Shown here in pieces: positions 16,507 through 60,561 of a stretch of DNA of 64,000 nucleotides. The DNA lies in NCBI RefSeq assembly GCF_003790525.1, contig NZ_CP033635.1, one strand, 5' to 3'. Both the position numbers and the translations under genes were made by a program. The stretch's first letter is position 1. The number at the start of each line of letters is the position of its first letter. This stretch comes from Escherichia coli. GTDB taxonomy: Bacteria > Pseudomonadota > Gammaproteobacteria > Enterobacterales > Enterobacteriaceae. The notes under the pieces were generated by a model. That model did no database searches and was not told where the DNA came from. It saw only the letters and a program-made list of their open reading frames with translations.

Positions 16507-17283
16507 TCATTTACTGCCGCTGGTGGCTGTATCGAGATGCACCACCGGGTTTTCGGCGAACAGATAGCGGTCGGCATTGAACTCGAAATCGTCGCTGGTT
16601 TCGTTAAATAACATGATCTTGGTGTTTTCCAGGTGCTGCCACATTGCCAGCTTAGCAGCATGAGGATCTTTGCGAATCAGCGCCTTGAGGATTTGATCGT
16701 GGTCATCACACCAGTTATCGACGGTACGGGCATCAATGTGTTCGTGCAGTTTTTTCCAGTACGGGTTATGACTACGCTGGGTCCACATTTTTTCAACGAT
16801 AGCCGCCAGGGCGGAGTTCTGCGTCGCCAGGGCTACCTGAATATGGAACTGCAAATCCCACTCGGAATCACGGAAGCATTGTTCGCCGCGCGCCTGCTCC
16901 TGGATGGCCATCAATTTCATGATGTCCTGTTTTGTGACCTGAGTTGCCGCGAACTCGGCAATATTACTTTCGATGAGCTGGCGGGCTTGCAGTAGCTCAA
17001 ACGGACCGTAATTGGCAAACTCCATATTATTGTCAGCCGATTGCTGATGGCGCGGCTGGTTGGAAACCACATGAATACCTGAACCTTTACGCACTTCGAC
17101 ATAGCCTTCAACTTCCAGCATGATGATGGCTTCACGAACCACGGTGCGGCTGACGTTTTTTTCATCGGCAATAAAGCGTTCGGCAGGCAGTTTATCACCT
17201 ACCAGATAGACGCCCTGTTCGATGCGCTCTTTCAGATCAGCGGCAAGTTGTTGATACAAACGGCGTGGTTCAGTGATTTCCAT
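16507..17283 (-). CDS. exuR: GntR-family hexuronate regulon repressor
   Basis: ORF 16507..17346; start at [24 protein letters not shown] (258 aa); N-terminal GntR HTH plus FCD domain. Confidence 0.9.
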
Positions 17284-17572
17284 ATGCGTCTCCAGGAGTG
17301 GAATGCGGACAAAGTTATCATACCACTTTATGCATGCGTATGCCATTGTTAAAATATAAATCGAATGATTGAAATAATATTATTTATTGATGTTATGAAT
17401 ATTAATATATTCCTAAAATTGATTATGTTGAATTGTGAAAAAACATATTTTTCAGTAGGTTGTATTTTTTTGAGAATAAATAATTTTATCTAAAGATGCT
17501 TTTTTGTGTTGACTTGAAAAATAGTATGATTTCTAATGCGCCAACTTTTTATGAAATAATTTAACTGATTAA

Positions 17573-18289
17573 ATGGTGGCGAAAATTAATCGATTATTAC
17601 GGCTCGGGCCTGTCTTACTTCTGTGCACATCATTTTTCGCACAATCTAATATGACTGTATATCCTATGTCTGTATCTATAAACAGTCAGGGAGAAGGAAG
17701 TGTTCGTGTAATATCGAAAACGAATGAAGTCCAATATATAAAGGCAACCGTATTTCGTATCGATAATCCATCAACACCACAAGAAAAAGAAATCGAAGTA
17801 ACTTCAGGCGATGCAAACCAACTTGTGATAATGCCGCCCAAATTTGCTTTGCCTGGCGGTAGTAGCAAAACCGTGCGTTTTGTGGCAATGGAACCTGAGC
17901 AAAAAGAAAAAAACTATCGGGTTAAATTTGAAGCTGTACCCAGCATTGATGATGCAACAGATAATAAAAAAGATCTCTCCATGCAATTAACGGTTAACTT
18001 AATTTGGGGGATTGTTGTCAGCGTGCCACCTCAGCAGCCTGTGGCAAAGTTAGATATTAACGCCGATAAAAAGCTAATCAATAATGGCAATCAACGTCTG
18101 AAGATATTAACCATTGCCTATTGTAAAAATAGTGGTTCTGCGGAGTGCAGAACACAGACCGTAAATAAAAACATTTTCCCTGGTCAGGAAAGAGTTTTAG
18201 AAAGCATATCTGGCTACGATAAAATCGTTGTCAAATATAATAACTGGATCACCAAGGACAATGGCGAGTTTGAGCTGGCGGTCCATTAA
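17573..18289 (+). CDS. class-5 fimbrial periplasmic chaperone (CfaA/CooB-like)
   Basis: 238 aa with signal peptide; ...NMTVYPMSVS... and ...KNYRVKFEAVPS... parallel CfaA motifs (NFMIYPIS, YRVYFEAV); first gene of a chaperone-pilin-usher-adhesin array. Confidence 0.85.
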   Translation: MVAKINRLLRLGPVLLLCTSFFAQSNMTVYPMSVSINSQGEGSVRVISKTNEVQYIKATVFRIDNPSTPQEKEIEVTSGDANQLVIMPPKFALPGGSSKTVRFVAMEPEQKEKNYRVKFEAVPSIDDATDNKKDLSMQLTVNLIWGIVVSVPPQQPVAKLDINADKKLINNGNQRLKILTIAYCKNSGSAECRTQTVNKNIFPGQERVLESISGYDKIVVKYNNWITKDNGEFELAVH

Positions 18290-18318
18290 TTATCATTGTA
18301 ATAAACCAAGGAATAGTA

Positions 18319-18819
18319 ATGAAAAAGGTATTCGCAAAATCTCTTCTGGTAGCGGCAATGTTTTCCGTTGCAGGTTCTGCATTAGCAGTACAAAAAGATA
18401 TCACTGTTACTGCTAACGTTGATGCTGCTCTGGATATGACGCAGACCGATAATACTGCACTGCCGAAGGCAGTAGAAATGCAATATCTGCCAGGTCAGGG
18501 TCTGCAATCTTACCAGTTAATGACTAAAATCTGGTCAAATGACACGACCAAAGACGTGAAAATGCAGTTAGTTTCGCCTGCGCAACTGGTTCAGAGCCTG
18601 GACGCCAGCAAAATTGTTCCGCTGACCGTAACCTGGGGTGGTGAAGAGATTAAAGCTGATGCGGCAACCACTTTTACCGCAACGAAAATCTTTGCTTCCG
18701 ATGCGTTAACTAACGGTTCGCTGGCTAAACCACTGATGTTTTCCCAGGCTACCAAAGGTGTTCTGGAAACGGGTATCTACCGTGGCGTAGTTAGCATTTA
18801 TCTGTCCCAGGCTCTCTAA
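18319..18819 (+). CDS. class-5 fimbrial major pilin (CfaB/CooA-like)
   Basis: 166 aa; signal peptide MKKVFAKSLLVAAMFSVAGSALA then VQKDITVTANVDAALD..., closely resembling the CFA/I major subunit (VEKNITVTASVDPVIDL...). Confidence 0.85.
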   Translation: MKKVFAKSLLVAAMFSVAGSALAVQKDITVTANVDAALDMTQTDNTALPKAVEMQYLPGQGLQSYQLMTKIWSNDTTKDVKMQLVSPAQLVQSLDASKIVPLTVTWGGEEIKADAATTFTATKIFASDALTNGSLAKPLMFSQATKGVLETGIYRGVVSIYLSQAL

Positions 18820-18891
18820 TCTGGATAACAGAATTAACATGCAATAAAGGGAGGCAAGTCCTCCCTTCTTTTAACTATTTTAGTATTTATT

Positions 18892-21594
18892 ATGGATTAC
18901 AGGACAGCCATGGACAAAAAATTACTGGCTCTTTTGATCCTGGCGAGTCTCAGCCCGGCAAAGGCAACATTAACAAAAATTCCCGCTGGTTTTGAGGTTA
19001 TTGCTCAGGGACAGCAGGAGTATATCGAGGTTTATTTTGCAGGGAAAAGTCTCGGTAAATATTATGCGATGGTTAATCTTGATACCGTAACCTTTCTTGA
19101 TTCATCAAGTTTATACAGCAAACTTGAATTGAGCACTGACGATCAAAAAATCGCTCATACAGTGAAAGAAAAACTATCGCAACCCTTAGCTCGCCACGGT
19201 GAACTGGCTTGTGGTTTTGTACGTACTGATTCAGGATGCGGTTTTCTTAATACTGAGACAGTAGAAATAATCTACAATGATGAAGAAAGTTCAGCAACGC
19301 TATTTCTTAATCCGCAATGGAGTTCTGCGTTTAACTCGAAGTCATTGTATTTAAATCCAGACAAAAATACGGTTAACGCTTTTATACATCAGCAAGATAT
19401 TAATGTGCTGGTACAGGATGATTACCAATCGTTGTCAATTCAGGGTAATGGCGCACTGGGAATAACAGAAAATAGCTATATTGGTGCGCACTGGAATTTC
19501 GACGGTTATGATGCAGATGATGTCAGCGACAACAATGTCGATGTCAGCGATCTCTATTACCGCTATGATTTTTTACGCCGTTATTATGTGCAGGCGGGGC
19601 GGATGGACAACCGCACATTATTTAATGCGCAAGGTGGAAACTTTACTTTTAACTTTCTGCCACTCGGTGCCATCGACGGAATGCGTATCGGGTCGACTCT
19701 CAGTTATTTAAACCAGACGCAAAGCCAGCAGGGAACGCCGGTAATGATCCTGCTTTCGCGCAATTCTCGTGTTGATGCTTATCGTAATGAACAACTGTTG
19801 GGATCGTTTTACCTCAATAGTGGTTCGCAATTTATTGATACCAGTTCCTTTCCGCCAGGCAGCTACAGCGTGGCGTTAAAAGTTTATGAAAATAACCAAC
19901 TCACCCGCACCGAGCTTGTACCGTTTACCAAAACCGGCGGTCTGACAGACGGAAATGCCCAGTGGTTCTTGCAGGCAGGTAAAACCACATCACAGGTTTC
20001 TGATGATGAAAGTTCTGCTTATCAGCTAGGCGTACGCCTGCCATTACATCCGCAATATGAGCTCTACGCAGGGCTGGCGAATGCCGATGATGTAAGTGCT
20101 TTCGAGTTAGGCAATAACTGGACGGCAGATTTAGGCGGGGCGGGGAATCTGGCTATCAGTGCCAGCGTGTTCCGTAACGATGACGGCGGCAAAGGCGATA
20201 TGCAACAGGCCAACTGGAGTCATCCGGGATGGCCGACGTTGGGCTTTTATCGGACCAACTCTGACGGTGATGCTTGTACAACCGACAACAGAGAGAGCTA
20301 CAACGCCTTAAGCTGTTATGAAAGTATTTCCGCGACGGTTTCACAGAATTTTGTCGGCTGGAATATGATGCTGGGTTATACCCGCACACAAAATAACACT
20401 GATGATAGTTTGCGCTGGGACAAACAGCAGAGCTTTGAAAATAACTATCTTCGCCAGACTTCGGCTCAAAGCATTTCCGAGACCGTACAACTTAGCGCTT
20501 CTCGCGCTTTTGTGATGCGTGACTGGATTTTGAGTACTTCCCTTGGGGTTTTCCATCGTAATGACAACGGCGGTGGTAGCGATGACAACGGTTTGTATCT
20601 GTCGTTTTCGTTATCTGATACGCCGACGATGGACAGCAATAACAACAGCCATTCAACCAATGTTTCTACTGATTATCGTTATAGCGATCAGGATGGCGAT
20701 CAAACGTCATGGCAGTTATCGCATACCTTTTATAACGACTCATTCAGCCATAAAGAGCTTGGCGTGACCGTCGGCGGTTTGAACACCGATACCATAAACA
20801 GCGCGGTTAACGGGCGTTGGGATGGCCAATATGGAAATGTCTACGCTACTGTCTCAGACAGTTATGATCGCCAGAACCATGATCATCTCTCGGCCTTCAC
20901 CGGGACATACAGCTCCACGCTGGCGGTGAGTCGCTATGGCATCAATTTGGGGGCCAGCGGCTCAGATGATTTGCTGGGAGCGGTGTTGGTGGATGTGAAA
21001 GGTTTCTCTGAACAGGATGAACAGAGTCAGGGTCTGCAACTCGAAGCGCGGGTGGCTGGCAGCAGAACATTGCAGCTTGGTCAAAGCGACAGCGTGTTAT
21101 TCCCCTATCCTGGATTTCAGTCTGGCTTTGTTGAAGTTAACGACAGTAATCAGGGTAACCAGCAAGGAACAACCAACATCATTAACGGTGCGGGAAATCG
21201 TGAGTTAATGCTGTTGCCGGGCAAATTACGTTATCGCGAAGTGTCTGCCAGTTTTAATTACAACTATATTGGTCGTTTGTTATTGCCCGCATCGGTAGAG
21301 AAATTCCCGCTGGTGGGTCTGAATAGCGCCATGTTACTGGTGGCTGAAGATGGCGGATTCACACTTGAGATCAGCAGTGGTGAAAAAGAGTTGTATCTGC
21401 TTTCCGGGCAGCAGTTCCTGAAATGTCCGCTGAATGTTTTGAAGAAACGCGCCAGCATTCGCTATAGCGGGGATGTGAATTGTAGCGTGGTGAGTTATTC
21501 ACAATTGCCGGAATCTATTCAGGTTCAGGCACAGTTGAAACAGCCTAAATTACGTGGAAACGTCCAGACGGCGCAAAGGGAGGTTGCACCATGA
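18892..21594 (+). CDS. class-5 fimbrial outer-membrane usher (CfaC/CooC-like)
   Basis: 900-aa ORF with signal peptide, about the size of CfaC, between pilin and adhesin genes; start may be the second Met at 18910. Confidence 0.85.
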   Translation: MDYRTAMDKKLLALLILASLSPAKATLTKIPAGFEVIAQGQQEYIEVYFAGKSLGKYYAMVNLDTVTFLDSSSLYSKLELSTDDQKIAHTVKEKLSQPLARHGELACGFVRTDSGCGFLNTETVEIIYNDEESSATLFLNPQWSSAFNSKSLYLNPDKNTVNAFIHQQDINVLVQDDYQSLSIQGNGALGITENSYIGAHWNFDGYDADDVSDNNVDVSDLYYRYDFLRRYYVQAGRMDNRTLFNAQGGNFTFNFLPLGAIDGMRIGSTLSYLNQTQSQQGTPVMILLSRNSRVDAYRNEQLLGSFYLNSGSQFIDTSSFPPGSYSVALKVYENNQLTRTELVPFTKTGGLTDGNAQWFLQAGKTTSQVSDDESSAYQLGVRLPLHPQYELYAGLANADDVSAFELGNNWTADLGGAGNLAISASVFRNDDGGKGDMQQANWSHPGWPTLGFYRTNSDGDACTTDNRESYNALSCYESISATVSQNFVGWNMMLGYTRTQNNTDDSLRWDKQQSFENNYLRQTSAQSISETVQLSASRAFVMRDWILSTSLGVFHRNDNGGGSDDNGLYLSFSLSDTPTMDSNNNSHSTNVSTDYRYSDQDGDQTSWQLSHTFYNDSFSHKELGVTVGGLNTDTINSAVNGRWDGQYGNVYATVSDSYDRQNHDHLSAFTGTYSSTLAVSRYGINLGASGSDDLLGAVLVDVKGFSEQDEQSQGLQLEARVAGSRTLQLGQSDSVLFPYPGFQSGFVEVNDSNQGNQQGTTNIINGAGNRELMLLPGKLRYREVSASFNYNYIGRLLLPASVEKFPLVGLNSAMLLVAEDGGFTLEISSGEKELYLLSGQQFLKCPLNVLKKRASIRYSGDVNCSVVSYSQLPESIQVQAQLKQPKLRGNVQTAQREVAP

Positions 21595-22685
21595 GAAATC
21601 GATTAATTGCCGTGATTTTATGTTTATTTGGCATGGTCGCGGGGGGGCACGCTACGCCAAATGTGACGGCTGAAATTACTTATGATTTGGCCGCTGGTAG
21701 GGCGGATTATTACTTCTGGAATAGGGAAGATCCCCCCGCAGTAAGCTACAACACGACATGGTCAAGTTATAAATGCGATTTTCCTGATGTGCAGCAGACC
21801 TGTACCGCATCAGGAAATTTATCAACAGTGAAAATATATTTGACAGAAAAACGCAGTGGAATGCGTTGGCCCGTCAAACTCAAAGGCTATGTTGATGCGG
21901 AGGTCTGGAACCCGGGTGGAGTCTGTAACGGATGGTCGACGCAAATCGCGTTAGCTAACGGTACGGGTTATCAATGTAAAAGTGCTTCAGACGGTTATAT
22001 ACAACATCTTGCGAGCGCAAAGCCGATGACGCTCTATCTTGAACAGTCCGAAATGAAAAATTTACCAATCGGTGGTGTTTGGGAAGGTTCGGTCAAATTG
22101 CAGTTTACTAATCCGTCTACGGATTATCGCGCCGATATTACGCTTAATGTCCTCGATCCCAACCATATCGACGTGTTCTTCCCGGAGTTCGCCCACGCTA
22201 CGCCACGCGTACAACTGGATTTGCATCCAACAGGCAGCGTTAACGGCAACAACTACGCGCAAGATCTGACTATGTTGGATATGTGCCTGTACGATGGCTT
22301 TAACGGTAACGGTCTTAGCTATGAAATTTTGCTAAAAGATGAGGGAAGAACGGCGGCAGGACGCAGTAATGGTGAGTTTTCGATTTATCGTCAGGGCGCG
22401 AGCTCAACGGATGAAGGGGAGCGTATTGATTACCGTGTCAAAATGTACGACCCGGAATCAGGTGGGCAAATCGATGTGCGCAACAATGAGAGCATGGTCT
22501 GGACCAACATCAACCTTAAACGTGTCCGCCCGGTGGTGCTTCCAGGCATTCGTTACGCTGTGATGTGTGTTCCCACACCGCTGACGCTGGTGGTCGACAA
22601 ATTTAACGTGACGGCAAAACAGGCGGGATATTATATGGGTAAATTGTCGGTCATCTTTACCCCGTCATTGCCGACAATCAATTGA
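21591..22685 (+). CDS. class-5 fimbrial minor subunit / tip adhesin (CfaE/CooD-like)
   Basis: 364 aa; start overlaps the usher stop (ATGA); motifs LPIGGVWEGSVKL, DLHPTGS, DMCLYDGF and C-terminal AGYYMGKLSVIFTPSLPT parallel CfaE (LPFGGVWNAVLKL, RPTGGG, DMCFYDGY, AGQYMGNIKITFTPSSQTL). Confidence 0.82.
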   Translation: MRNRLIAVILCLFGMVAGGHATPNVTAEITYDLAAGRADYYFWNREDPPAVSYNTTWSSYKCDFPDVQQTCTASGNLSTVKIYLTEKRSGMRWPVKLKGYVDAEVWNPGGVCNGWSTQIALANGTGYQCKSASDGYIQHLASAKPMTLYLEQSEMKNLPIGGVWEGSVKLQFTNPSTDYRADITLNVLDPNHIDVFFPEFAHATPRVQLDLHPTGSVNGNNYAQDLTMLDMCLYDGFNGNGLSYEILLKDEGRTAAGRSNGEFSIYRQGASSTDEGERIDYRVKMYDPESGGQIDVRNNESMVWTNINLKRVRPVVLPGIRYAVMCVPTPLTLVVDKFNVTAKQAGYYMGKLSVIFTPSLPTIN

Positions 22686-22700
22686 CCTCGCAGACCAGAA

Positions 22701-22739
22701 AAAACTAAACAACGAAGCCGCCTGAAGAGGCGGCTTCGT
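22701..22739 (-). terminator. rho-independent terminator downstream of exuT
   Basis: Hairpin cgaagccgcc-tgaagag-ggcggcttcg followed on the minus strand by a T-rich tract, directly after the exuT stop. Confidence 0.5.
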
Positions 22740-22760
22740 CATTACAACTTACGTTAATTC

Positions 22761-24059
22761 TTAATGTTGCGGTGCGGGATCGTTATGTGATTCCTGCGCC
22801 ACCTCAATCGCCGGTTTGTTCTGCAATACCGTCCAGATAACCAGTGCCCCCAGTAGGTCGAATACCGCAAGTACTGCGAACAGCGGGCTAAAGCCGATGG
22901 TGTCAGCCAGTGCACCAACCACCAGAGCAAAGAGCGTACTTGCCAGCCATGCGGACATCCCGGTTAAACCGTTCGCCGTCGCCACTTCGTTACGACCGAA
23001 CACGTCAGAAGAGAGCGTAATCAGTGCGCCAGACAGTGCCTGGTGAGCAAAACCACCGATACACAGCAGCATAATCGCGACATACGGGTTGGTGAACAGA
23101 CCGATCATACCCGGGCCAATCATCAGCACAGCACCCAGCGTTACGACCATCTTACGGGAAACGATCAGGTTCACACCAAACCAACGCTGGAACAGCGGCG
23201 GCAGGTAACCACCGAGGATACAACCGAGGTCAGCAAACAGCATCGGCATCCAGGCAAACATCGCGATCTCTTTCAGGTTAAAGCCGTAAACTTTAAACAT
23301 GAACAGCGGGATCCACGCGTTAAAAGTACCCCATGCCGGTTCTGCCAGGAAGCGCGGCAGCGCGATACCCCAGAACTGACGGTTGCGCAGGATCTGACCA
23401 ACGGACATTTTCTTCGCTGTGTCAACCTGGTGCTGGGCTTCCTGACCATTAATAATGTAGTCGCGTTCTTCATCGGTCAGATGTTTCTGGTCGCGCGGAT
23501 GCTTGTAGAAAATCAGCCATGCCATCGCCCAGATAAAGCTCAACGCACCGGAGATGATAAATGCCATCTGCCAGCTGTGCATCACGATTGCCCATACCAC
23601 CAGCGGCGGCGCAATCATCGCACCAATCGAAGAACCTACGTTAAAGTAACCTACCGCGATGGAACGCTCTTTCGCCGGGAACCATTCGGAGCTGGCTTTC
23701 AGACCCGCCGGAATCATCGCGGCTTCCGCGGCACCGACCGCACCACGAGCAACCGCCAGGCCACCCCAACTACCTGCCAGCGCGGTTGCACCACAGAACA
23801 CGGCCCACAGTACAGCAAACATTGCATAACCGATTTTCGTACCCAGCACATCCAGTACATAACCCGCTACCGGTTGCATGACCGTATAAGCAGCAGAATA
23901 CGCTGCGATGATATAGGAATACTGTTGGGTGGAGATGTTTAACTCTTCCATCAGAGTTGGCGCAGCTGCCGCCACAGTGTTACGCGTCAGGTAACCAAGC
24001 ACGGTGCCGAGCGTCACCAGTGCGATCATATACCAACGTAACCCTTTAATTTTACGCAT
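22761..24059 (-). CDS. exuT: hexuronate transporter (MFS)
   Basis: ORF 22761..24179; start taken at MRKIKGLRWYMIALVTLG (432 aa) by K-12 recall; the 40-codon N-terminal extension is rejected. Confidence 0.88.
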   Translation of the reverse strand: MRKIKGLRWYMIALVTLGTVLGYLTRNTVAAAAPTLMEELNISTQQYSYIIAAYSAAYTVMQPVAGYVLDVLGTKIGYAMFAVLWAVFCGATALAGSWGGLAVARGAVGAAEAAMIPAGLKASSEWFPAKERSIAVGYFNVGSSIGAMIAPPLVVWAIVMHSWQMAFIISGALSFIWAMAWLIFYKHPRDQKHLTDEERDYIINGQEAQHQVDTAKKMSVGQILRNRQFWGIALPRFLAEPAWGTFNAWIPLFMFKVYGFNLKEIAMFAWMPMLFADLGCILGGYLPPLFQRWFGVNLIVSRKMVVTLGAVLMIGPGMIGLFTNPYVAIMLLCIGGFAHQALSGALITLSSDVFGRNEVATANGLTGMSAWLASTLFALVVGALADTIGFSPLFAVLAVFDLLGALVIWTVLQNKPAIEVAQESHNDPAPQH

Positions 24060-34460: not shown

Positions 34461-34475
34461 GATTGGCAGCTACCT

Positions 34476-34566
34476 GCCAGATAAGGCGTAAACGCCTTAT
34501 CTGGCATACGTTCAGCACATTACCCCCAGGTCGGATAAGACGCGGCAAGCGTCGCATCCGGCACTT
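34476..34566. repeat. REP element cluster
   Basis: ctgccagataaggcgtaaacgccttatctggca and cggataagacgcggcaagcgtcgcatccggca palindromic units between rlmG and fadH. Confidence 0.55.
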
Positions 34567-34577
34567 CAATGCACAAT

Positions 34578-51387: not shown

Positions 51388-52152
51388 ATGAATAACTCCC
51401 CCCGCTACCCGCAGCGCGTTCGCAATGATCTGCGCTTCCGTGAACTGACTGTGTTACGCGTTGAGCGCATCAGCGCCGGTTTTCAGCGCATTGTCCTCGG
51501 CGGCGAGGCGCTGGACGGTTTTACGTCGCGCGGCTTTGACGATCACAGCAAACTCTTCTTTCCTCAACCTGACGCTCACTTTGTGCCGCCAACGGTAACG
51601 GAAGAGGGCATCGTCTGGCCGGAAGGACCACGCCCACCGTCGCGTGACTATACGCCGCTGTATGACGAACTACGCCATGAACTGGCGATCGATTTCTTTA
51701 TTCACGACGGTGGGGTCGCCAGCGGCTGGGCGATGCAGGCGAAACCGGGCGATAAACTTACGGTGGCAGGTCCGCGCGGTTCGCTGGTGGTGCCGGAAGA
51801 TTACGCGTATCAGCTGTATGTCTGCGATGAATCCGGAATGCCCGCACTGCGCCGCCGCCTGGAAACGTTGAGCAAACTTGCCGTTAAACCGCAAGTTAGT
51901 GCGCTGGTTAGCGTGCGGGATAACGCCTGTCAGGATTATCTCGCGCACCTTGATGGTTTTAATATCGAATGGCTGGCACATGATGAGCAGGCGGTAGATG
52001 CGCGTCTGGCGCAGATGCAAATCCCTGCCGATGATTACTTCATCTGGATAACCGGCGAAGGCAAAGTCGTTAAGAATTTAAGCCGCCGCTTTGAAGCGGA
52101 ACAGTATGACCCACAGCGGGTACGTGCAGCGGCTTACTGGCACGCAAAGTAA
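51388..52152 (+). CDS. yqjH: NADPH-dependent ferric-siderophore reductase
   Basis: 254-aa ORF MNNSPRYPQRVRNDLRFRELTVLRVERISAGFQRIVLGGEALDGF... Confidence 0.88.
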   Translation: MNNSPRYPQRVRNDLRFRELTVLRVERISAGFQRIVLGGEALDGFTSRGFDDHSKLFFPQPDAHFVPPTVTEEGIVWPEGPRPPSRDYTPLYDELRHELAIDFFIHDGGVASGWAMQAKPGDKLTVAGPRGSLVVPEDYAYQLYVCDESGMPALRRRLETLSKLAVKPQVSALVSVRDNACQDYLAHLDGFNIEWLAHDEQAVDARLAQMQIPADDYFIWITGEGKVVKNLSRRFEAEQYDPQRVRAAAYWHAK

Positions 52153-52168
52153 CTGATATATATAAAGA

Positions 52169-52196
52169 AAAAGGCTGACGATTTCTCGTCAGCCTT
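52169..52196. terminator. bidirectional rho-independent terminator (yqjH / ileX)
   Basis: Hairpin aaaggctgacg-atttct-cgtcagccttt flanked by A-run on one side and T-run on the other. Confidence 0.5.
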
Positions 52197-52205
52197 TGCT
52201 ATGTC

Positions 52206-52253
52206 TGGTGGCCCCTGCTGGACTTGAACCAGCGACCAAGCGATTATGAGTCA
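52206..52253 (-). other. ileX: 3' partial copy (about 47 nt) of tRNA-Ile2 (ileX, CAU anticodon): island att junction
   Basis: Minus-strand read gives ...GACTCATAATCGCTTGGTCGCTGGTTCAAGTCCAGCAGGGGCCACCA, i.e. anticodon loop, T-arm, acceptor 3' strand and CCA. The 5' half (acceptor/D-arm) is absent; the upstream sequence diverges. Confidence 0.75.
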
Positions 52254-52378
52254 TGAGGCAAGTTCGTTCTATATTGTTTTTGTTTGTTCGTGATTGCTTT
52301 ATTAGTTGTTTGTAATCAATAAATTATGTGATTTTCCCTGTCTCCGCTTGGTTCCGTTTTTTCTTCATTGTACGATCG

Positions 52379-52402
52379 TTACCTGACCCATTACCTGACC
52401 CA
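52379..52402 (+). repeat. tandem 12-bp direct repeat (ttacctgaccca x2) upstream of int
   Basis: Two exact adjacent copies about 47 bp upstream of the integrase ATG, within the island-side arm of the att junction. Confidence 0.6.
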
Positions 52403-52448
52403 AAATCACGAGTTATTCTGATTGTTACTGGTTTAGAAAAGAGGTTCT

Positions 52449-53765
52449 ATGGCCGTCAATCTTACTGAAACAGCCATCCGAGCATTGAAAGCAAAAAAGA
52501 CATCGTTCTATGTCTGGAGCAACAGCTCTCAACGTGGCACTGGACGACTTGGTGTCAAAGTTCAGCCTTCTGGCAGCAAGATTTTCTATTTCCGCTATTA
52601 CGTGGAAAAAGGGAAAAAAGAAAGATTCATTCAATTGGGTATATGGCCTGAGATGAAACTGGCCACAGCGAATGAACTGACAAAAAAGTATGGTGCCTGG
52701 CTCATTGAAGGAAAGGATCCCCAGGCAGAACTGGAACGACAACAGTTTGCAGAACAGCAGCGGATACAACTCCATCAATCACAGGGCTCATTTGAAGCAT
52801 TGATTCATGGTTATGTTAACAAAATGAAAATTGATAATAAGAGGACATGGCAGGATGTTCTGAAACGCCTTGAAAATGAATGCTATACAGTGATCCCCCG
52901 TGAAACTAAAGCTAAAGATGTGACTTCCGGACAGATTAAACATATCCTGGCCGGGATCATTCAGCGCGGTGCTGTGGTTCACTCTAACCGGATCCGTTCT
53001 TACCTGATGGCTGCATTTAACTATGGACTGAAAGCAGATAACGATCCGATGAACACAAGTGTAGGGATTACTTTTGGGCTGGAGGCAAATCCGGTGTCAG
53101 TGATACCGAAACAGTCATCTGCTGAAAAAGTCGGTGATACCTGGCTGACACTTGAAGAGTTGCGTTTTCTAATGGAACATTTTGCTGAAGCAACCAACGT
53201 TGGATTATTGATGCAACATTTGATCCGATTCTGTATCTATACCGGAGGGCAACGTCCTTTCGAAATGATCGCCAGTCAGTGGTGTGATGTTGATTTTCAA
53301 CAAAAAACGCTGCTGGTGACTGCTGATGTCTCTAAAAATAAACGAGAGCATTTGATACCGTTGACTGAATCAGCATTACAGGAATTATCCTGTGTGCAGG
53401 AGTTAACAAAAGAAAAATCCAGCCCTTACATTTTTCCACTTTCGACTAATGGTAAGCGTCCGGTTCGTACGGACAGTCTGGCTCGCGCTATCATGTATTT
53501 CCGGGCTTTTAATCCTGACTTTAAAATTTTTACAGCACGTGACTTACGTCGGACCTGTAAAACGTTAATGGGAGAAGCTGGGATCAGTAAGGAAATCCGC
53601 GATCGTATTCAAAATCATGCGTTGAACGATGTCAGTTCAAAACATTATGATCGATACGATTATTTGCCAGAAAAACGCAGAGCACTTGAGATCTGGGAGG
53701 ACCGGGTTAATAACTATCAACAGCAAACAGGCAATAATGTTGTCAATCTGTTTGGCAGAAGGTGA
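52449..53765 (+). CDS. P4-type tyrosine recombinase / phage integrase
   Basis: 438-aa ORF MAVNLTETAIRALKAKKTSFYVWSNSSQRGTGRLGVKVQPSGSKIFYFRYYV... (typical N-terminal arm-binding region of P4-like integrases); the C-terminal region contains R, H and Y residues compatible with a tyrosine-recombinase catalytic core; adjacent to the tRNA fragment. Confidence 0.9.
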   Translation: MAVNLTETAIRALKAKKTSFYVWSNSSQRGTGRLGVKVQPSGSKIFYFRYYVEKGKKERFIQLGIWPEMKLATANELTKKYGAWLIEGKDPQAELERQQFAEQQRIQLHQSQGSFEALIHGYVNKMKIDNKRTWQDVLKRLENECYTVIPRETKAKDVTSGQIKHILAGIIQRGAVVHSNRIRSYLMAAFNYGLKADNDPMNTSVGITFGLEANPVSVIPKQSSAEKVGDTWLTLEELRFLMEHFAEATNVGLLMQHLIRFCIYTGGQRPFEMIASQWCDVDFQQKTLLVTADVSKNKREHLIPLTESALQELSCVQELTKEKSSPYIFPLSTNGKRPVRTDSLARAIMYFRAFNPDFKIFTARDLRRTCKTLMGEAGISKEIRDRIQNHALNDVSSKHYDRYDYLPEKRRALEIWEDRVNNYQQQTGNNVVNLFGRR

Positions 53766-53894
53766 GGGAGTTCCTGGTTGCTGTACGAATTGTGTACAAT
53801 TGATGGGTATTGTTGATGCACTTGGTTCTTGTATTGTTTACTATAATTATTGAGGTAAATTTTCGTGCCGGTATTACTCAGAGGGGATTCAAAA

Positions 53895-54491
53895 ATGGCT
53901 GTAATTCCAATGTCTTACTCCCCTGCTACTGTAGCTCGTCGTTTTTCGATACTGGATGGAGTAACTATTCAGGGCGTGCTTTACCAGATCATCTGGGATC
54001 CAAAGACTCCGTTTGCTGCGGTAATCGAAGCTGCACCTTCTGTTATTGATGGTGATGTTCGCCATAAGGTTGTTGCCACTCTGGAGCTTCAGCGTCGTCC
54101 CCGGCTTGAAGGCGTGTTTGTCCAGAAATTCTGGGAAGAACAGGATGTTGCTCAGATTGAAGGGATTGTTGTCGATGGCGCTGTACGTGATGTTGGTCTT
54201 GCAACGTTTGTTTATGAAACGATAGTCACAAAAGCGGGCGTTGTACTATTAAGTGATAACGAGCAATATGAAGGAGGTAAAGCTCTCTGGCAGCATATTG
54301 CGCGTCGTTCAACGAATCTGAAGGTGTTTATTTTAGATACTGATTCCGCACGGTATTACCCGTTTGATGGCGAACGGATCAGTTATGACGGGAAAAGCAT
54401 CCCGGAATCAGAAATCTGGAGTGAACATCCTGAGCGAAACAGACACGCTGTCGTTCTTGTGGCTGAATCTGTTAATGGTAAAGCCGCATAA
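53895..54491 (+). CDS. hypothetical protein (198 aa), integrase-proximal cargo
   Basis: ORF 53865..54491; ATG at 53895 has a good SD (agagggga). No family recognised; an R-x-x-G-x-A stretch (VRDVGLA) is only faintly reminiscent of GNAT motif A. Confidence 0.55.
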   Translation: MAVIPMSYSPATVARRFSILDGVTIQGVLYQIIWDPKTPFAAVIEAAPSVIDGDVRHKVVATLELQRRPRLEGVFVQKFWEEQDVAQIEGIVVDGAVRDVGLATFVYETIVTKAGVVLLSDNEQYEGGKALWQHIARRSTNLKVFILDTDSARYYPFDGERISYDGKSIPESEIWSEHPERNRHAVVLVAESVNGKAA

Positions 54492-54573
54492 TTTGCTGAG
54501 TGTCTCATTTTTTGAGATCTTGCTGGAAAGTCTCCTTTGGGGATAGCGAACTGCTATCCCCTTTCTCAGTGAG

Positions 54574-56178
54574 TTACTGTTCGACCAGACATTTTCCCCA
54601 TAAAGGTCGTATCGAGTATCTATCTTCGCTATATGGATTTATTTTATTTTTTTCCCTCTGTGCTATCAGCAACGTGTCGATCTCATCCTTAATAATGTGT
54701 TGAACTGCTTGACGGTAACGGTTAAGCGAAGTGTCACTGATATCTTGTGGAAGTTGTAGACTGCCATCTGCCTTGACAAGTTCATTTACACCATCTTTAA
54801 TTCTGCGTCCCTGACCATCAGGTATACCTTCATTCAGATCATAGCCTTTTAGTCCTGCAAGACGAATATTCACGTCAATCTTTTCTGTACGTATCTTTTT
54901 GTTACTTACCAACAGAATTTTATTGGCGTTATACCATTTTTCAAATATTTCCAGTTGTTTCATGATGTTTGTGAAGTTATTCAGTTCGCTCCTGAATTCA
55001 ATAGATTTTCTAATTTTACGCTCTTTTGCATCAATGTTTATTCCTGGATAATTTATTTCCATTTTTAACGGTTCTGTGTATGCCTGTTGCAGGCAATCAG
55101 CAAGATTCATTGCTGCATCCTGCAGGGTATTGGTATAAATCAGTTTCAGAAGTTCATCACGCTGTATAGTGATTTGACAATAGTCTTTTTCCCATGCGGT
55201 GGTGTTTTCAATCGTGTCACTTTCATCGGAAATAATTGTTGTGAACTTCCAGGTGTAACGAATAAAATCATTTCCTTTAAAATATTGCACTAATTTATTT
55301 AACCATTCATATATTTCCAGAGCATAAAGTTTAACGTATCCATCATATATTATCTTTGTTGCATTTTTGTTGGCTAGCGAAAACATTTTGTCCACGAATT
55401 CTGTACGCCCGATTGTTAGCAATTGTTTTCTAAGTTTACTCACATCGTTAGTATCTGGTTTCTCACAATTCCAGGGACTTTTGTATTCATTTTCAAAAGG
55501 AGAAAGCCATTCAGGAATCTCTGTTTCTGAGTGATAGCAGTTGTTAATAGCCAAACCAAGGGTTCTGGCAAGTATCGCTGATTCATCAATTTGATGGTAT
55601 CGGTTCAGTTGTTCCAGTAATTCTTTAGTACATGAGTGCGCAACAGAAAGATCCTGATGGCAATATCCTTGTCGAACCAGAGCGGGAAGTGGTGAGCAAT
55701 GAGCTTTACAATCTGTCAGAATATTGAACAAATCGTTTCTGACGAATTCTTCCATCTCAGGTGTTTTCCAGCCACCACTATTTTGGCCGACAAATTTTGC
55801 TGTTGGTTCCCTGTTCATATCTCCCCAGGTTTTCAGGCTGACGAGTCTGTTATCAAAACCATTGTATAAATGGCACATAACCTGAAAAGCAGCATACAGA
55901 TCTTTAGATAGTGGATTATCGGTCTCACTTATGGAGTAGTTCTCTCTGTTTTTCTCTAAAATACTTTGGAGTTTTGTGTTAGCGCGTAATGCCGAGAGAA
56001 TCCGATGTTGTTCATCAAACCAAGGACGATATTCTGGATCCAGATACAATCTGCGTGCTTTGAAAATGAGTAGAAGCAACTGTTCGGAAACAGCTTCATG
56101 TATGTGGGGAAACGGCATGGAGGTGCCGGATAAAACACGATAGTACGGGTGGTTTGTTTTTACCTTTTTAGTTACCAT
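54574..56178 (-). CDS. hypothetical protein (about 514-534 aa), AT-rich, convergent with the 198-aa gene
   Basis: Long uninterrupted ORF with Lys/Asn/Glu/Tyr-rich, low-GC composition. No Walker A, HEPN, PD-(D/E)xK or TM signature recognised by eye. Alternative start at Met21 (56118). Confidence 0.6.
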   Translation of the reverse strand: MVTKKVKTNHPYYRVLSGTSMPFPHIHEAVSEQLLLLIFKARRLYLDPEYRPWFDEQHRILSALRANTKLQSILEKNRENYSISETDNPLSKDLYAAFQVMCHLYNGFDNRLVSLKTWGDMNREPTAKFVGQNSGGWKTPEMEEFVRNDLFNILTDCKAHCSPLPALVRQGYCHQDLSVAHSCTKELLEQLNRYHQIDESAILARTLGLAINNCYHSETEIPEWLSPFENEYKSPWNCEKPDTNDVSKLRKQLLTIGRTEFVDKMFSLANKNATKIIYDGYVKLYALEIYEWLNKLVQYFKGNDFIRYTWKFTTIISDESDTIENTTAWEKDYCQITIQRDELLKLIYTNTLQDAAMNLADCLQQAYTEPLKMEINYPGINIDAKERKIRKSIEFRSELNNFTNIMKQLEIFEKWYNANKILLVSNKKIRTEKIDVNIRLAGLKGYDLNEGIPDGQGRRIKDGVNELVKADGSLQLPQDISDTSLNRYRQAVQHIIKDEIDTLLIAQREKNKINPYSEDRYSIRPLWGKCLVEQ

Positions 56179-56957
56179 AATGTTAAATTCTTCCGTCTAT
56201 TGCATAGCTGTTTCCAGTAGAGAAACTTGATACAGTCCTTTGTCAGGACATTGATACAGAGTTAACAGCCTCTACGAAATGGGAATCAGTTATGCAGTGG
56301 CATTATACGATGCTGAATCTAATACGATATCCTTAGCGTTTATTCCTGATTTTTTTACGAGCATTCCCTTTTGTTGCATATTGCTCAGGACGCAAATGAT
56401 TTTACGGTTATAGCCCTCTACAGTCACGTCACTTTCATCTGAAAATATGTATCGTTTTCATTCAATTATTATCTTTTGTCTGCACTTTAGCTTTAGAAAG
56501 TTGGCAAAAATCAACTCCCTCTTACAAGTTCTATTATCGCCAGAAGATAATTTTGTGAACTTCGTCACGTTTTCAAACTAATGTTGTGGGGGCTTTTCTG
56601 GGGAGAATTTTTGGTCACTACCCCTCCTCTTGATATCATAGATTATAACAAGATTTTTTTTGTTTTTGTCTGCATAAAATAACCTACGAATATTGTGATT
56701 TTGATTTTTATTTTGTATACCAAAAAGCATTGTTTAAGTTATTTTTATATTGTGACTTTCTTTGTTGTTATTGTGTTATTAGAAGTCAGTTAATTAAATC
56801 ATTTCTCACAATTTGATTTCTTGGTTGTGCAAATGTATTGTTTTGCTCGTGAGTTGCTGGTGCTGTTCAACAGCATACCACTACAGATAGATGTAGTGAT
56901 TTGAGCAGCTCACATGCATATACAATCTGAAAATCATGAATATATAAGGAGAGCAAT

Positions 56958-57185
56958 ATGTGGAAGCCGTTAAGAGATGAGAACCGTTTATCAATTTTGA
57001 AGATCTATGGATACACCTGTGACAGACTGGTACGAGAAAAGGAACGCCAGAAAATTACGTCTATTTCTCGTTCACAAGCCTGGAAACTGGAACGTGAAGG
57101 AAAATTCCCGCCACGTAAAACTATTGGAAAGAAATCCTGTGGGTGGTTATTAAGTGATCTATTGTGGTGGATTAGTCAGTATTAA
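56958..57185 (+). CDS. AlpA-family phage/island transcriptional regulator
   Basis: 75-aa ORF MWKPLRDENRLSILKIYGYTCDRLVREKERQKITSISRSQAWKLEREGKFPPRKTIGKKSCGWLLSDLLWWI: typical AlpA/Prophage_CP4-57 regulator pattern; strong SD (aaggag). Confidence 0.75.
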   Translation: MWKPLRDENRLSILKIYGYTCDRLVREKERQKITSISRSQAWKLEREGKFPPRKTIGKKSCGWLLSDLLWWISQY

Positions 57186-57247
57186 CCTTATAGTATCAGA
57201 ATAATATATATTTCTATATTTTAATTTTATAATTAAAAAGGAGTTTC

Positions 57248-57994
57248 ATGATGAAACGTGTCTCTTTCTCTCTTGCAGAAACATATGAAGCTGATGTAAT
57301 TAAAAAGTATCAGCATTTAAAAAAATGCTCATTTTCAGCAGCGATTAAAGAGTGTTTAAAGCTAGGGGCTCCTGTTTTAAACAGGATAAATGAAAATATT
57401 GCTGCTATAACTGATATAGAGGATAAGCTACGTCAGTTTTTTAATGAGGAACCATTTGTGCAACGGACAAAGCCTGAAATAACAAAAGGAGAGTTTTTTC
57501 ATAGCATTTATAAATCGCATATCAAATATGAATATGATGTTCTCGATAGAAAGATATTTCCTCATGAAAGCACCAGAAATGCTATGGGAGTTGCAGAGAA
57601 AAAGGGAATTAAAGAGAATGCGACCTTAATGCTGGAATATTATAAAGTTGAGAAGGCAATTTGTATTTACACGAACAGAAAAGTTTCCCATACCCTGAAT
57701 CGTGCAGGAGGGTTTTATAAAACCATTCTGATTAAAACCAGTGTTTTTGGGGATTATTTTTTTGACTTTTGCAATTCAGTTTGCCTGCCGATAGATGAGT
57801 TGATTGAGTATGGTACGAAAGAAACAGTGAGGCGACATCAGATTCGTAGTACAGGATTTTGTACTTTTCATATTCCGATTTTTTATATCAATAATAAGGC
57901 TGTAATAGTGCCTGTTCTGAGAACAGAGGAAGTTTCACAAAGTTCCAGAACAGGTGGAGATGTTATTATTATTAACCCATTTGAAGATGAATGA
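57248..57994 (+). CDS. hypothetical protein (248 aa) with possible N-terminal RHH-like segment
   Basis: N-terminus MMKRVSFSLAETYEADVIKKYQHL resembles the beta-strand-helix start of ribbon-helix-helix proteins; remainder unassigned; SD aaggag. Confidence 0.55.
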   Translation: MMKRVSFSLAETYEADVIKKYQHLKKCSFSAAIKECLKLGAPVLNRINENIAAITDIEDKLRQFFNEEPFVQRTKPEITKGEFFHSIYKSHIKYEYDVLDRKIFPHESTRNAMGVAEKKGIKENATLMLEYYKVEKAICIYTNRKVSHTLNRAGGFYKTILIKTSVFGDYFFDFCNSVCLPIDELIEYGTKETVRRHQIRSTGFCTFHIPIFYINNKAVIVPVLRTEEVSQSSRTGGDVIIINPFEDE

Positions 57995-58215
57995 TTATGG
58001 CCCGCGTAGATTTATTCATAACCCAGAAATCGTGGTGTAAATGATGAACAGAAACCGCTTTCTGAGGTTAAAGAGAGCAATCATTACCCGGGAGTGGCCA
58101 ACTCTTTTATCGAGTACTTTTCCGATGTATCTGGAGAGCCTCCCTTAGAAAAGAGTAATGCGACTCAGGAAAAAACAGGTTCAATAATTAATTCATGACA
58201 CCAGTTTGAGGCATT

Positions 58216-58776
58216 ATGGCGAGTTTTGCATACATAGACTCTGAAAAATGGTCAAAACTTAATCGCTTAAAATCCATGATTCAGAGATATTTTAAAGAAC
58301 CACTATTGCAGTTAACAGGCGAATTGGGTCGCCCGGATTATACTCTGGCAGACAGAAAACGGTTAGTTCGACTCCTGACGCAGGATATGCAAAGGGGTGA
58401 TATTCTGATTACTAAATCGTTAACTTGTTTTGGTAATACGCCGGAAAAAATACAGGAGGTTTTATCTTTAAGTATCAGACAAGGTATTAATATTTGCTTT
58501 TTTACGTCATCAGAGTTGCCGGATGGTGATGATATTCCTGTGGTACTCACCGGGATGATTTTACCTACAGATATTAGAGGAAAAATTCCCGACATCAGTA
58601 TCCGGAAAATTAAAAGAAAACCAGGAAGGAAAGAAGGGAGTATTCATAGTAAAAATATCAGACAGTTGAAATTGCAGGGGTTCAGTCAGTCACAAACAGC
58701 CAGAAAATTAAGCATCAGTTTATCCACTGTAAAAAGACACTGGGATAAAGGTATTGTTGATCTAACTGCAGAGTAA
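58216..58776 (+). CDS. serine-recombinase (resolvase/invertase)-like protein with degenerate catalytic motifs and C-terminal HTH
   Basis: 186 aa; MASFAYIDSEK.. parallels resolvase MxxIGYxRVST.. and GDILITKSLTCFGN parallels GDxLVVxKLDRLGRS, but the conserved Arg/Asp residues are replaced; C-terminal GFSQSQTARKLSISLSTVKRHW is resolvase-type HTH. Confidence 0.55.
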   Translation: MASFAYIDSEKWSKLNRLKSMIQRYFKEPLLQLTGELGRPDYTLADRKRLVRLLTQDMQRGDILITKSLTCFGNTPEKIQEVLSLSIRQGINICFFTSSELPDGDDIPVVLTGMILPTDIRGKIPDISIRKIKRKPGRKEGSIHSKNIRQLKLQGFSQSQTARKLSISLSTVKRHWDKGIVDLTAE

Positions 58777-59041
58777 CATTTTATAGTCCTTGTAGCTATT
58801 GGCAATGGAGTTATAAATACATGTGCGTTGGATAGGTAATATATATTATATCTGTGATGTATAGTATATGTGTAATGATGGATATGATGTACTAATAGAG
58901 CTAATGGTATTCTGATACCAAATAATTAGTTGTGTGTAGATCATAACTCTGTTTAATGTTTTAGAACGTTCTAATGTAACTGTGTAACATCATCCTGTTC
59001 TCTAATGTAACAATAGGCAGTAGCGTTTTTCTTAATTGACG

Positions 59042-59067
59042 CCCAGAGGGTTATATATCCCTCTGGG
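59042..59067. promoter_or_regulatory. perfect palindrome cccagaggg-ttatatat-ccctctggg
   Basis: 9-bp inverted arms separated by an 8-bp AT spacer, about 90 bp upstream of the 204-aa gene; flanked by direct repeats of tctaatgtaac. Confidence 0.4.
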
Positions 59068-59157
59068 AACTACTGATACGAATATTAATATCTGCTTCTG
59101 TTGTGTATTGGGTAGGTTAACTATTAGCTTATCTCTGAAAGCAAAAGGAATATTAAC

Positions 59158-59772
59158 ATGATTACGATTGAAACTCTTTACGGTGAATGTCATGAGGCTC
59201 ACGGGTTAAAAATAAGAAACCAGGTGAATAACCTCTTCCAGAAACATCCCAGAATAACGGCAATACGGGTGGATCTCCATTATCCTCCCGTGATTGACAA
59301 CGGGGATACCATTACCTGTTTTCCTAACCTGAGTCCCGGAGAGATATCTCGTTTCCGTAACTCGCTGAATGCGAAAATTAATGCAGATCAACACCGTAAA
59401 AAACAACAAGGCAAACGCACCTACGCAACGTCGGTTTGTATTATCTGGGCGAAAGAATATACGCAGTCCTTTAAATGTCATTATCACGTCTGCCTTTTTT
59501 TTAACAAAGACGCCTATTACCACCTGGGAGACTATGAGCGCTCTGACACCCTGAGAGGGTTAATTACCGGAGCCTGGTACAGTGCCTTAGGGTTAGAACT
59601 GGAAGATCACCAGGGACTAGTTCATTTCCCTGCTAATGGACGTTACATCCTGGATATTAACGATCCTGATTTCCCTGAGCAATATCAGCGCTTATTGGCA
59701 CGTCTGGATTATCTGACGAAGCTCGACACTAAAGCATCAGGCCAGCGTAACTTTGGCTACAGCGGTTTTTGA
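59158..59772 (+). CDS. HUH-endonuclease (rolling-circle Rep / inovirus Gp2-like, YagK/YfjJ-type) protein
   Basis: 204 aa; contains KCHYHVCLFF (H-u-H motif) and a downstream DYLTK (YxxK-type candidate catalytic Tyr); genomic context matches CP4-type prophage modules. Confidence 0.55.
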   Translation: MITIETLYGECHEAHGLKIRNQVNNLFQKHPRITAIRVDLHYPPVIDNGDTITCFPNLSPGEISRFRNSLNAKINADQHRKKQQGKRTYATSVCIIWAKEYTQSFKCHYHVCLFFNKDAYYHLGDYERSDTLRGLITGAWYSALGLELEDHQGLVHFPANGRYILDINDPDFPEQYQRLLARLDYLTKLDTKASGQRNFGYSGF

Positions 59773-59799
59773 CCTATTGTAACTGTAAGGTGATTTATT

Positions 59800-60366: not shown

Positions 60367-60561
60367 CGACGTCAGGTGATGCATAAGGGCCTTTCGCTGA
60401 GAGGCCCTGTTTACACAATTAAATAAGTCGAACCCGACCAGCAATTTTGACGTTGACGGCAGGATTATTGAGGGGCAATCAATGTGTTCTTCGGCAGCGA
60501 TTACGGTAGTGAACGGACCTGCTGTCTGAATGGTATCGATCCGCAAGCGTATCTGCGCCAT

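Follow-up and report, generated by a model that had tools for sequence, protein, structure and literature searches.

The alternate chaperone-usher operon between exuR and exuT of Escherichia coli and its probable identity with the CS1-like (Eaf) locus

The hexuronate genes exuR and exuT of Escherichia coli K-12 are separated by a gap of only 129 bp. In the stretch of E. coli DNA analyzed here (64,000 nucleotides of contig NZ_CP033635.1, RefSeq assembly GCF_003790525.1; hereafter the window), the spacer between the same two genes occupies exactly positions 17284-22760 and contains four intact open reading frames on the + strand, both flanking genes being on the - strand. This raises the questions of what these four genes are, how long they have been in place and how they may be expressed. 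We find that they form an operon of the alternate chaperone-usher (alpha, class-5-like) clade, of the kind of CFA/I, CS1, Tcf and Cbl, which is very probably the intact chromosomal operon of Escherichia known as "CS1-like" or Eaf (eafABCD). The operon is not new, having been catalogued since 2008-2013 and annotated in RefSeq, and the discovery value of an ordinary catalogued accessory fimbrial operon is small. As an accessory adhesin locus of E. coli it is comparatively common, being carried by about a third of genomes, and it has statistical links to lower urinary tract infection (UTI) and to expression in Shiga toxin-producing E. coli (STEC) associated with hemolytic uremic syndrome (HUS).

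Gene content and clade membership

An operon at this site has been described twice. Archer 2011 reported eafABCD, the "E. coli α-type fimbria", between exuT and exuR (PMC3032704). Oshima 2008 reported the "CS1-like" operon ECSE_3375-3378, which MG1655, O157 Sakai, CFT073 and UTI89 lack and which E24377A, HS, ATCC 8739, 536 and SMS-3-5 carry with 71-100% amino-acid identity (PMC2608844). Judging by the way later papers present that scheme, CS1-like is counted among the fimbrial types of Wurpel 2013 (PMC3559732). The window operon agrees with the catalogued type in its exuT-exuR position and in its usher lineage: both published CS1-like PCR primers (PMC8249706) fit the window usher gene without a mismatch (20272-20290 and 21007-21026), and the predicted amplicon of 755 bp has the published size. 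With the same primers, 21 of 59 isolates from lower UTI tested positive, versus 3 of 31 from upper UTI (PMC8249706). In STEC, transcripts of the alpha-fimbrial usher and major subunit have been detected, at higher levels in the HUS group (PMC6033998).

The four genes follow each other in the order chaperone, major pilin, usher and tip adhesin. The periplasmic chaperone (EafA/CfaA-like, 238 amino acids) is encoded at 17573-18289, and the major pilin (EafB/CfaB-like, 166 amino acids) at 18319-18819. The outer-membrane usher (EafC, TcfC/CfaC-like, 894 amino acids) is encoded at 18910-21594, with an alternative in-frame ATG at 18892, and the two-domain tip adhesin (EafD, CfaE/CblD family, 364 amino acids) at 21591-22685, where its ATG overlaps the usher stop codon (ATGA). 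RefSeq names the products fimbria/pilus periplasmic chaperone, CS1 type fimbrial major subunit, TcfC E-set like domain-containing protein and CfaE/CblD family pilus tip adhesin. Read directly, the N-termini of all four proteins are plausible Sec signal peptides. The region 17200-22800 is 100% identical to E. coli SC516, a strain from chicken liver in China. The window as a whole belongs to another strain: from about 52.3 kb onward it has an island that is missing in SC516.

A preliminary description of the locus had reported a complete chaperone, major pilin, usher and tip-adhesin set between exuR and exuT and on the opposite strand to them, missing from K-12 and without an activator gene. Each of these statements is borne out. 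The islet holds no further open reading frame of at least 60 amino acids, and no regulator gene is annotated in the identical SC516 stretch. Neither of the two observations that the description had named as fatal to its account was made: the four fimbrial genes are absent from the K-12 gap, and no frameshift or truncation was found in any of the four genes, either in the window or in four further E. coli alleles.

Comparisons of the individual proteins lead to the CFA/I group. By BLASTP, the chaperone, pilin and adhesin are 36%, 39% and 30% identical to CfaA, CfaB and CfaE, respectively, which agrees with the likeness to these proteins noted earlier. The chaperone finds CfaA in a PDB sequence search with E-values of 2e-31 to 8e-34, well ahead of EcpB (3e-8) and FimC (1e-3), and matches Pfam PapD_N (E = 1e-7). 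For the pilin, the same search returns CfaB (E = 4e-22), CS17 (E = 2e-15) and CooA (E = 2e-10), and Pfam assigns Fimbrial_CS1 (PF04449, E = 1.4e-23). The mature N-terminus of the pilin, VQKDITVTANVD, aligns to the CfaB donor strand VEKNITVTASVD. The usher matches the Pfam families Usher_TcfC (E = 2e-59), TcfC E-set (E = 2e-20) and CooC_C (E = 2e-5; PF17271/PF16967/PF15976) and found no solved-structure relative in the PDB sequence search. Its homology to CFA/I was established by tblastn to cfaC only, at 28.7-29% identity; the corresponding values are 30% for CsdC and 28% for CsuC. Among the curated NCBIfam models, the best matches stay far below their cut-offs: TcfA with 134 bits against 500 for the chaperone, CblA with 117 against 225 (E = 8e-34) and TcfB with 94 against 384 for the pilin, TcfC with 542 against 1428 for the usher and TcfD with 103 against 589 for the adhesin.

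The fourth protein is covered over its full length by Pfam CblD (PF07434, E = 2e-97) and finds CfaE in the PDB sequence search (E = 1.6e-27). We modeled it with AlphaFold2 using 89 homologs (predicted local distance difference test score, pLDDT, 85.7; predicted template modeling score, pTM, 0.75). A Foldseek search with the model placed CfaE structures (2hb0) on top, with template modeling (TM) scores of 0.73-0.74 and E = 2e-23. As judged from these matches and the predicted structure, the fourth gene clearly encodes a genuine CfaE-type two-domain tip adhesin.

Taken as a whole, the operon displays the features of alpha fimbriae: the gene order chaperone, major pilin, usher and minor or tip subunit; a CS1-type pilin, a TcfC/CooC-type usher and a CblD/CfaE-type tip by Pfam; a chaperone that resembles CfaA more than the classical PapD/FimC; and a two-domain adhesin of the CfaE fold, the last in an AlphaFold2 model rather than a solved structure. 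It was at first called a class-5 (CFA/I / CS1-like) operon. This designation is correct as to the alternate chaperone-usher kind and too broad as to strict membership in class 5 of enterotoxigenic E. coli (ETEC): because usher identity does not exceed 30% and Arg181 and Arg182 of CfaE are absent from the adhesin, the alignments place the operon outside the ETEC set (5a, 5b and 5c), as a distant relative of it. Since none of the proteins approaches an NCBIfam equivalog cut-off, the operon is neither Tcf nor Cbl, and the Tcf proteins are to be regarded as homologs and not as orthologs.

By analogy with CFA/I and CS1, the CfaA-like chaperone would hold the subunits by donor-strand complementation, and the CfaE/CblD-like adhesin would start assembly at the TcfC/CfaC-like usher and end up at the tip. 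The major pilin would then polymerize by donor-strand exchange through its N-terminal VQKDITVTANVD.

The junctions with the flanking genes can be located by comparison with K-12. The left flank is exuR (16507-17283, - strand), the hexuronate regulon repressor gene, identified from the RefSeq annotation of the SC516 stretch and 97.9% identical to K-12. The right flank is the hexuronate transporter gene exuT (22761-24059, - strand; RefSeq annotation), 97.3% identical to K-12 from 22761 on. Homology to K-12 ends at 17296 and returns at 22761. Because weaker similarity reaches to about 17330 (the sequence ATACCACTTT) and restarts at about 22688 (CTCGCAG and the exuT terminator hairpin), the DNA that is extra with respect to K-12 amounts to about 5.36 kb and ends 1-2 bp past the adhesin stop codon. 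Its G+C content is lower than that of the surroundings (45.6% in the operon, 49.8% window-wide and 51-54% in the flanks).

Leader and predicted transcription

The divergent leader 17284-17572, common to exuR and the fimbrial operon, has a G+C content of 21-24% (23.6% over 17297-17572). The 250 bp from 17350 on, with 20.4%, are the most AT-rich of the 64-kb window, in keeping with the extremely AT-rich leader of about 250 bp described earlier. In an alignment of eight Escherichia alleles, E. albertii included, the leader is about 60-80% identical overall and contains four near-invariant islands. A near-invariant block beside exuR (17311-17345) marks the left junction: columns 48-82 of the alignment are nearly all identical in the eight alleles. 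It is accompanied by promoter-like hexamers on the - strand at 17352-17325 and 17346-17317 and includes ATACCACTTT, which is common to the K-12 empty site. By its sequence, the block is probably the exuR promoter/operator. Two further islands consist of the ATTCCTAA block and the TTTCAGTA block.

A σ70 promoter, TTGACT-17 nt-TCTAAT, is predicted on the + strand at 17509-17537, within the most AT-rich stretch and about 35 nt ahead of the chaperone start codon. The TTGAC and T.TAAT elements are invariant and their spacing is kept in 8/8 Escherichia alleles, in the forms TTGAC(T/A) and T(C/T)TAAT. A simple promoter scanner missed this site only because it accepts no base but A as the second letter of a -10 hexamer. 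Transcription of the operon would proceed from this putative promoter and start near 17544. With up to two mismatches, the H-NS motif TCGATAAATT occurs at 8.4 per kb in the leader (17284-17640) versus 1.3 per kb window-wide, a 6.5-fold enrichment that comprises only three sites. In analogy to the cfa and coo promoters, the leader would probably be a target of H-NS, which would silence it under laboratory conditions.

Downstream of the pilin gene, a terminator-like match on the + strand at 18847-18867 consists of a stem-loop (AAGGGAGG-loop-CCTCCCTT) followed by the T-rich CTTTTAAC. The stem is kept in 8/8 Escherichia alleles and the loop sequence varies. The element is probably an attenuator or an mRNA stabilizer, and as such it may raise the ratio of pilin over usher and adhesin. 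Between the convergent adhesin gene and exuT lies a GC-rich hairpin (22708-22743) with a 16-bp stem and a T-run on the - strand, and a related hairpin is found in the K-12 empty site. It is the exuT terminator, and the operon transcript would probably end at this shared hairpin too.

The leader also contains an AT-rich inverted repeat of 20 nt (17369-17388 / 17475-17494) that is 85% complementary, with its arms 86 nt apart. It may be a chance occurrence in AT-rich DNA. We considered and rejected a phase-variable invertible switch: the repeat does not enclose the promoter at 17509-17537, and there is no recombinase nearby. A FimB-like gene occurs only in a relative from Serratia. In Serratia sp. 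AXJ-M, a phage-integrase-family gene of 192 amino acids, of FimB/FimE size, lies directly upstream of the homologous operon (locus L019, 3035-3613), which hints at phase variation by inversion in the Serratia lineage.

Distribution, age and alternative explanations

Among the 5426 complete genomes of E. coli, 1916 (35%) have the operon, always on the chromosome, at exuR-exuT, and with a median of one copy. Most copies (1683 genomes) fall into the 80-90% band of identity to the window allele, at about 85%; 60 genomes carry copies at 90-95%, 88 at 95-99% and 84 at 99% or more. The window allele is thus a minority form, with 172 of the 5426 genomes at least 95% identical to it. Copies on plasmids were sought by tblastn against PLSDB and rejected: the search gave two records at 90-95% identity, and the one inspected, NZ_MG591698.1, is chromosomal. 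This 353-kb E. coli record (L026) is labelled "plasmid unnamed", has 95% identity and shows the chromosomal neighborhood from yqjE to uxaA. A 5.7-kb contig with exuR and the operon (SFGN01000125.1, L007; usher 98%) is filed under a "Lachnospiraceae bacterium" metagenome-assembled genome and is almost certainly a binning contaminant.

Outside E. coli, the same exuR-exuT site is occupied by an intact annotated four-gene operon in E. albertii and in Escherichia sp. E4742. We compared synonymous (dS) and nonsynonymous (dN) substitutions per site between five E. coli alleles. For the window and common alleles dS is about 0.45 in the pilin and usher genes; it is 0.8-1.3 in the chaperone gene and 0.5-2.6 in the adhesin gene, and in the flanking exuR and exuT it is 0.06-0.25. 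The dN/dS ratio is 0.02-0.27 in all four genes. These rates indicate that all four genes are under purifying selection. A search for direct and inverted repeats in 17150-22850 returned only short chance matches at the boundaries, and no integrase or insertion sequence (IS) element is annotated in the islet. Because the site is shared with E. albertii and E4742, mobility genes and boundary repeats are lacking and dS lies far above that of the flanks, the locus is old, and it is kept by selection where present. Its distribution is better viewed as an ancient presence/absence polymorphism, or as an ancestral locus lost repeatedly, than as an insertion. The word "inserted" in the preliminary description is therefore right in that the DNA is extra relative to K-12; the direction of the evolutionary change that it implies does not hold, given the shared site and the dS values, and the flanking direct repeats for which it had suggested looking at the insertion endpoints did not turn up.

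Several observations weigh against the CS1-like/Eaf reading of the locus. In E. coli, 65% of genomes lack the operon, those of K-12 and O157 among them, and in some others its copies are interrupted by IS elements (IS1, IS2, ISEc60) or partly deleted. In a decay variant of E. coli AR_0069 (L025), a deletion fuses mid-pilin to mid-exuT, so that the usher and adhesin genes are gone and the transporter gene is truncated. The roles assigned to the promoter, to H-NS silencing and to the stem-loop as an attenuator are drawn from sequence only, and the stem-loop region folds just modestly better than shuffled sequence (z = -1.5). In the literature searched, we found genomic, PCR-survey and RNA-seq mentions of the CS1-like/Eaf operon only, with no functional study and no experiment showing that the fimbriae are made or what their ligand is. 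The cluster of E. coli W has moreover been said to have no tip adhesin (PMC3032704); for the window copy, the Pfam, PDB and AlphaFold2 results contradict this.

Three alternatives to the CS1-like/Eaf reading have to be considered. The locus might be a recent horizontal-transfer islet, a 5.4-kb mobile cassette that the window lineage received in its exuR-exuT spacer. Its absence from K-12, its G+C content below that of the flanks and its patchy distribution among strains would fit such an origin. We nevertheless consider this very unlikely and reject the mobile-element origin: two other Escherichia lineages carry the operon at the same site, boundary repeats are at chance level and neither integrase nor IS element is annotated, and the allele dS of 0.45-2.6 makes the locus much older than the diversification of E. 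coli. The only "plasmid" copy inspected is a mislabelled chromosomal fragment with the same neighbors. Conversely, the operon might be a cryptic relic, permanently silent and on its way to being lost. The 65% of genomes without it, the recorded IS insertions and deletions, the extremely AT-rich leader and the truncated adhesin fragments of 210 amino acids on record (one cluster, P0026, is named for Shigella boydii) point in this direction. We consider this very unlikely as well, as the four genes are intact in 5/5 E. coli alleles and annotated as intact operons in E. albertii and E4742, dN/dS remains at 0.02-0.27 across very deep divergence, the promoter hexamers are kept across species and transcripts have been detected in STEC (PMC6033998).

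The remaining alternative concerns expression. In ETEC class 5 fimbriae, H-NS represses the AT-rich promoters and Rns or CfaD activates them (PMC5554520, PMC5192496). The window leader is of the same AT-rich character, and the operon might likewise need an activator of the Rns/CfaD/AggR family acting in trans. We consider such a requirement unlikely. No AraC-family gene is annotated in the mapped parts of the window, and no adjacent AraC-type gene is found beside the relatives in Klebsiella, Kluyvera, Enterobacter, Citrobacter and Serratia. The absence of an activator encoded in cis is thus normal for the chromosomal clade members examined, and because these relatives lack one too, the missing AraC-type neighbor is not a distinguishing oddity of the window operon. 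The operon is also carried by commensals and many pathotypes, which are not known for regulators of the Rns family.

Adhesin variation, genomic surroundings and known relatives

The two domains of the adhesin differ sharply in their variability. The N-terminal receptor-binding domain (residues 23-190; 21657-22160, + strand) is a hypervariable cassette, and the C-terminal pilin domain (residues 191-364; 22161-22682, + strand) is conserved. Over about 21600-22150, DNA identity to every allele examined is 35-87%, and 35-68% over most of the stretch. The contrast is most evident against strain EC-10, in which the chaperone and pilin are 100% and the usher 99.9% identical at the protein level and the operon outside the N-domain is 95-100% identical; the N-domain is still divergent, and DNA identity is back to 96-99% in the pilin domain (about 22186-22580). 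In a database search, full-length Escherichia adhesins fell into 19 clusters at 90% identity, so that there are at least 19 types; the clusters are 69-100% identical to the query, and identity outside the genus does not exceed 47%. Over these 19, amino-acid identity averages 62% per pair (51-95%) in the N-domain and 91% (84-100%) in the pilin domain, and variability peaks at residues 51-80, 101-140 and 171-180. Three clusters (P0004, P0007 and P0010) have pilin domains 99% identical to that of the window and N-domains of just 56-70% identity. The two N-domain length classes and the two pilin-domain classes are found in all four possible pairings, which argues that the domains have been reassorted by recombination.

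Substitution rates follow the same division, with dN of 0.12-0.41 in the N-domain versus 0.005-0.09 in the pilin domain and saturated dS. The dN between the N-domain of the window and that of E4742 is 0.12, and for E. albertii it is 0.16. With the exception of L009 (0.21), every other E. coli allele is farther away (0.26-0.39). Positive selection on the N-domain was considered and cannot be taken as demonstrated, as pairwise dN/dS stays below 1 (0.08-0.26, one near-identical pair excepted) with dS saturated. The pattern of variability does suggest diversifying selection on this domain. A possible reading, which we offer tentatively, is that the N-domain represents a long-lived recombining cassette polymorphism common to Escherichia species, a panel of specificities or antigenic forms under balancing or diversifying selection. 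We found no description of a hypervariable cassette of a CS1-like adhesin in the literature searched.

CfaE is reported to bind sialic acid through a pocket of three arginines, Arg67, Arg181 and Arg182 (PMC7854682, PMC6056861). In a HMMER alignment, considering sequence alone, Arg181 and Arg182 (VKRR) fall into a 4-residue gap of the window adhesin, and the column aligned to Arg67 holds R, E, K or N among Escherichia alleles. The conserved three-arginine pocket of ETEC class 5 adhesins is therefore not recognizable in this alignment. Asn127 and Arg145, located in the vicinity of the CfaE pocket, align with the hypervariable residues 101-140 (counted by hand). Because the two pocket arginines are missing and the Arg67 column varies, the receptor cannot be inferred from CFA/I, in agreement with the earlier remark that the adhesin is too divergent for its receptor to be predicted. 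Strains probably differ in ligand, antigenicity or both. Typing by the usher only would hide such functionally different adhesins. The promoter conserved across species, the CfaE-type adhesin and the variability of the binding domain provide three handles for functional work.

A second mosaic tract, separate from that of the N-domain, extends over 22580-22960. This recombination tract takes in the terminator and the 3' ends of both adjoining genes, adhesin and exuT (the first ~200 bp in the latter), and is only 82-93% identical to EC-10 and BH100N. The remaining exuT of both strains is 99-100% identical to the window.

Two further differences from K-12 were observed elsewhere in the window. 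Its last 11.7 kb (52300-64000), right after nfeF (51388-52152), are a genomic island that opens with a gene for a tyrosine recombinase of 438 amino acids (52449-53765), followed by hypothetical genes, an IS3 transposase gene and a gene for a LacI-type regulator. In K-12 and SC516 the corresponding place is taken by tRNA-Ile, mug and rpoD. A match to at least 80% of the island stretch was obtained in 143 of the 5426 genomes. In fully matching genomes such as J-8, the island runs on to genes for an alpha-galactosidase, a major facilitator superfamily transporter, a GH32 hydrolase and a porin, a continuation that looks like a raffinose and sucrose-type cluster. ARAGORN found no tRNA gene in the 64 kb and Rfam returned nothing in 51900-52700; the displaced tRNA-Ile presumably lies at the far end of the island, beyond the window. 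The other difference is in the fadH-rlmG spacer (34461-34577), which measures only 117 bp; K-12 has about 1.05 kb there, with a higB-higA toxin-antitoxin pair that is absent in the window.

Beyond Escherichia, the closest relatives are those of Klebsiella, Kluyvera, Enterobacter and Citrobacter, where a four-gene operon is flanked by lysR and a ygeA-like racemase gene. The genomic context in other genera was obtained by exact-protein look-ups, and a genome scan for the usher protein with exact single-sequence peptide patterns gave only four close Escherichia loci. Near the lysR/ygeA-site operons lie pectin and oligogalacturonide genes, encoding a KdgF-like cupin, a TogMNAB-like ATP-binding cassette (ABC) transporter, an oligogalacturonate lyase and KduI/KduD. 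Thus, at either of the two sites known for these fimbriae, genes of hexuronate or pectin catabolism are close by; with only two independent sites, this may be a coincidence. We considered a functional tie to hexuronate or pectin metabolism and set it aside as too thin, since the shared lysR/ygeA site brings the total to just two independent sites.

Compared with known systems, the window operon has the gene order of CFA/I (cfaABCE) and the other ETEC class 5 fimbriae (CS1, CS2, CS4, CS14, CS17, CS19 and PCFO71), and shares with them the CfaA-type chaperone, the donor-strand motif of the pilin and the two-domain CfaE fold. It differs from ETEC class 5 in its fixed chromosomal site, in having no Rns/CfaD gene nearby and in its occurrence in commensals and many pathotypes, and from CFA/I in identities of just 36%, 39%, 29% and 30%, in the absence of Arg181/Arg182 and in a variable Arg67 position. 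Tcf of Salmonella Typhi (tcfABCD) has the same four-gene layout and gives the best NCBIfam match for the chaperone, usher and adhesin, although with scores under the equivalog cut-offs (134/500, 542/1428 and 103/589). The cable pilus (cbl) of Burkholderia cenocepacia provides the best match for the pilin, CblA, and the CblD Pfam family that spans the whole adhesin, but the CblA score is again under its cut-off (117/225) and the host lineage differs; the cbl genes have two-component regulators of their own. The alpha-fimbrial operon of Klebsiella, Kluyvera, Enterobacter and Citrobacter is closer, with the same gene order and Pfam set, no AraC gene and adhesins 42-47% identical to that of the window, yet it occupies another chromosomal site and is set apart by a gap in adhesin identity, at least 69% inside Escherichia versus at most 47% outside. 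Within the catalogued CS1-like type of Escherichia, to which the operon very probably belongs, the window carries a minority allele with an adhesin-domain variant of its own (cluster P0001).

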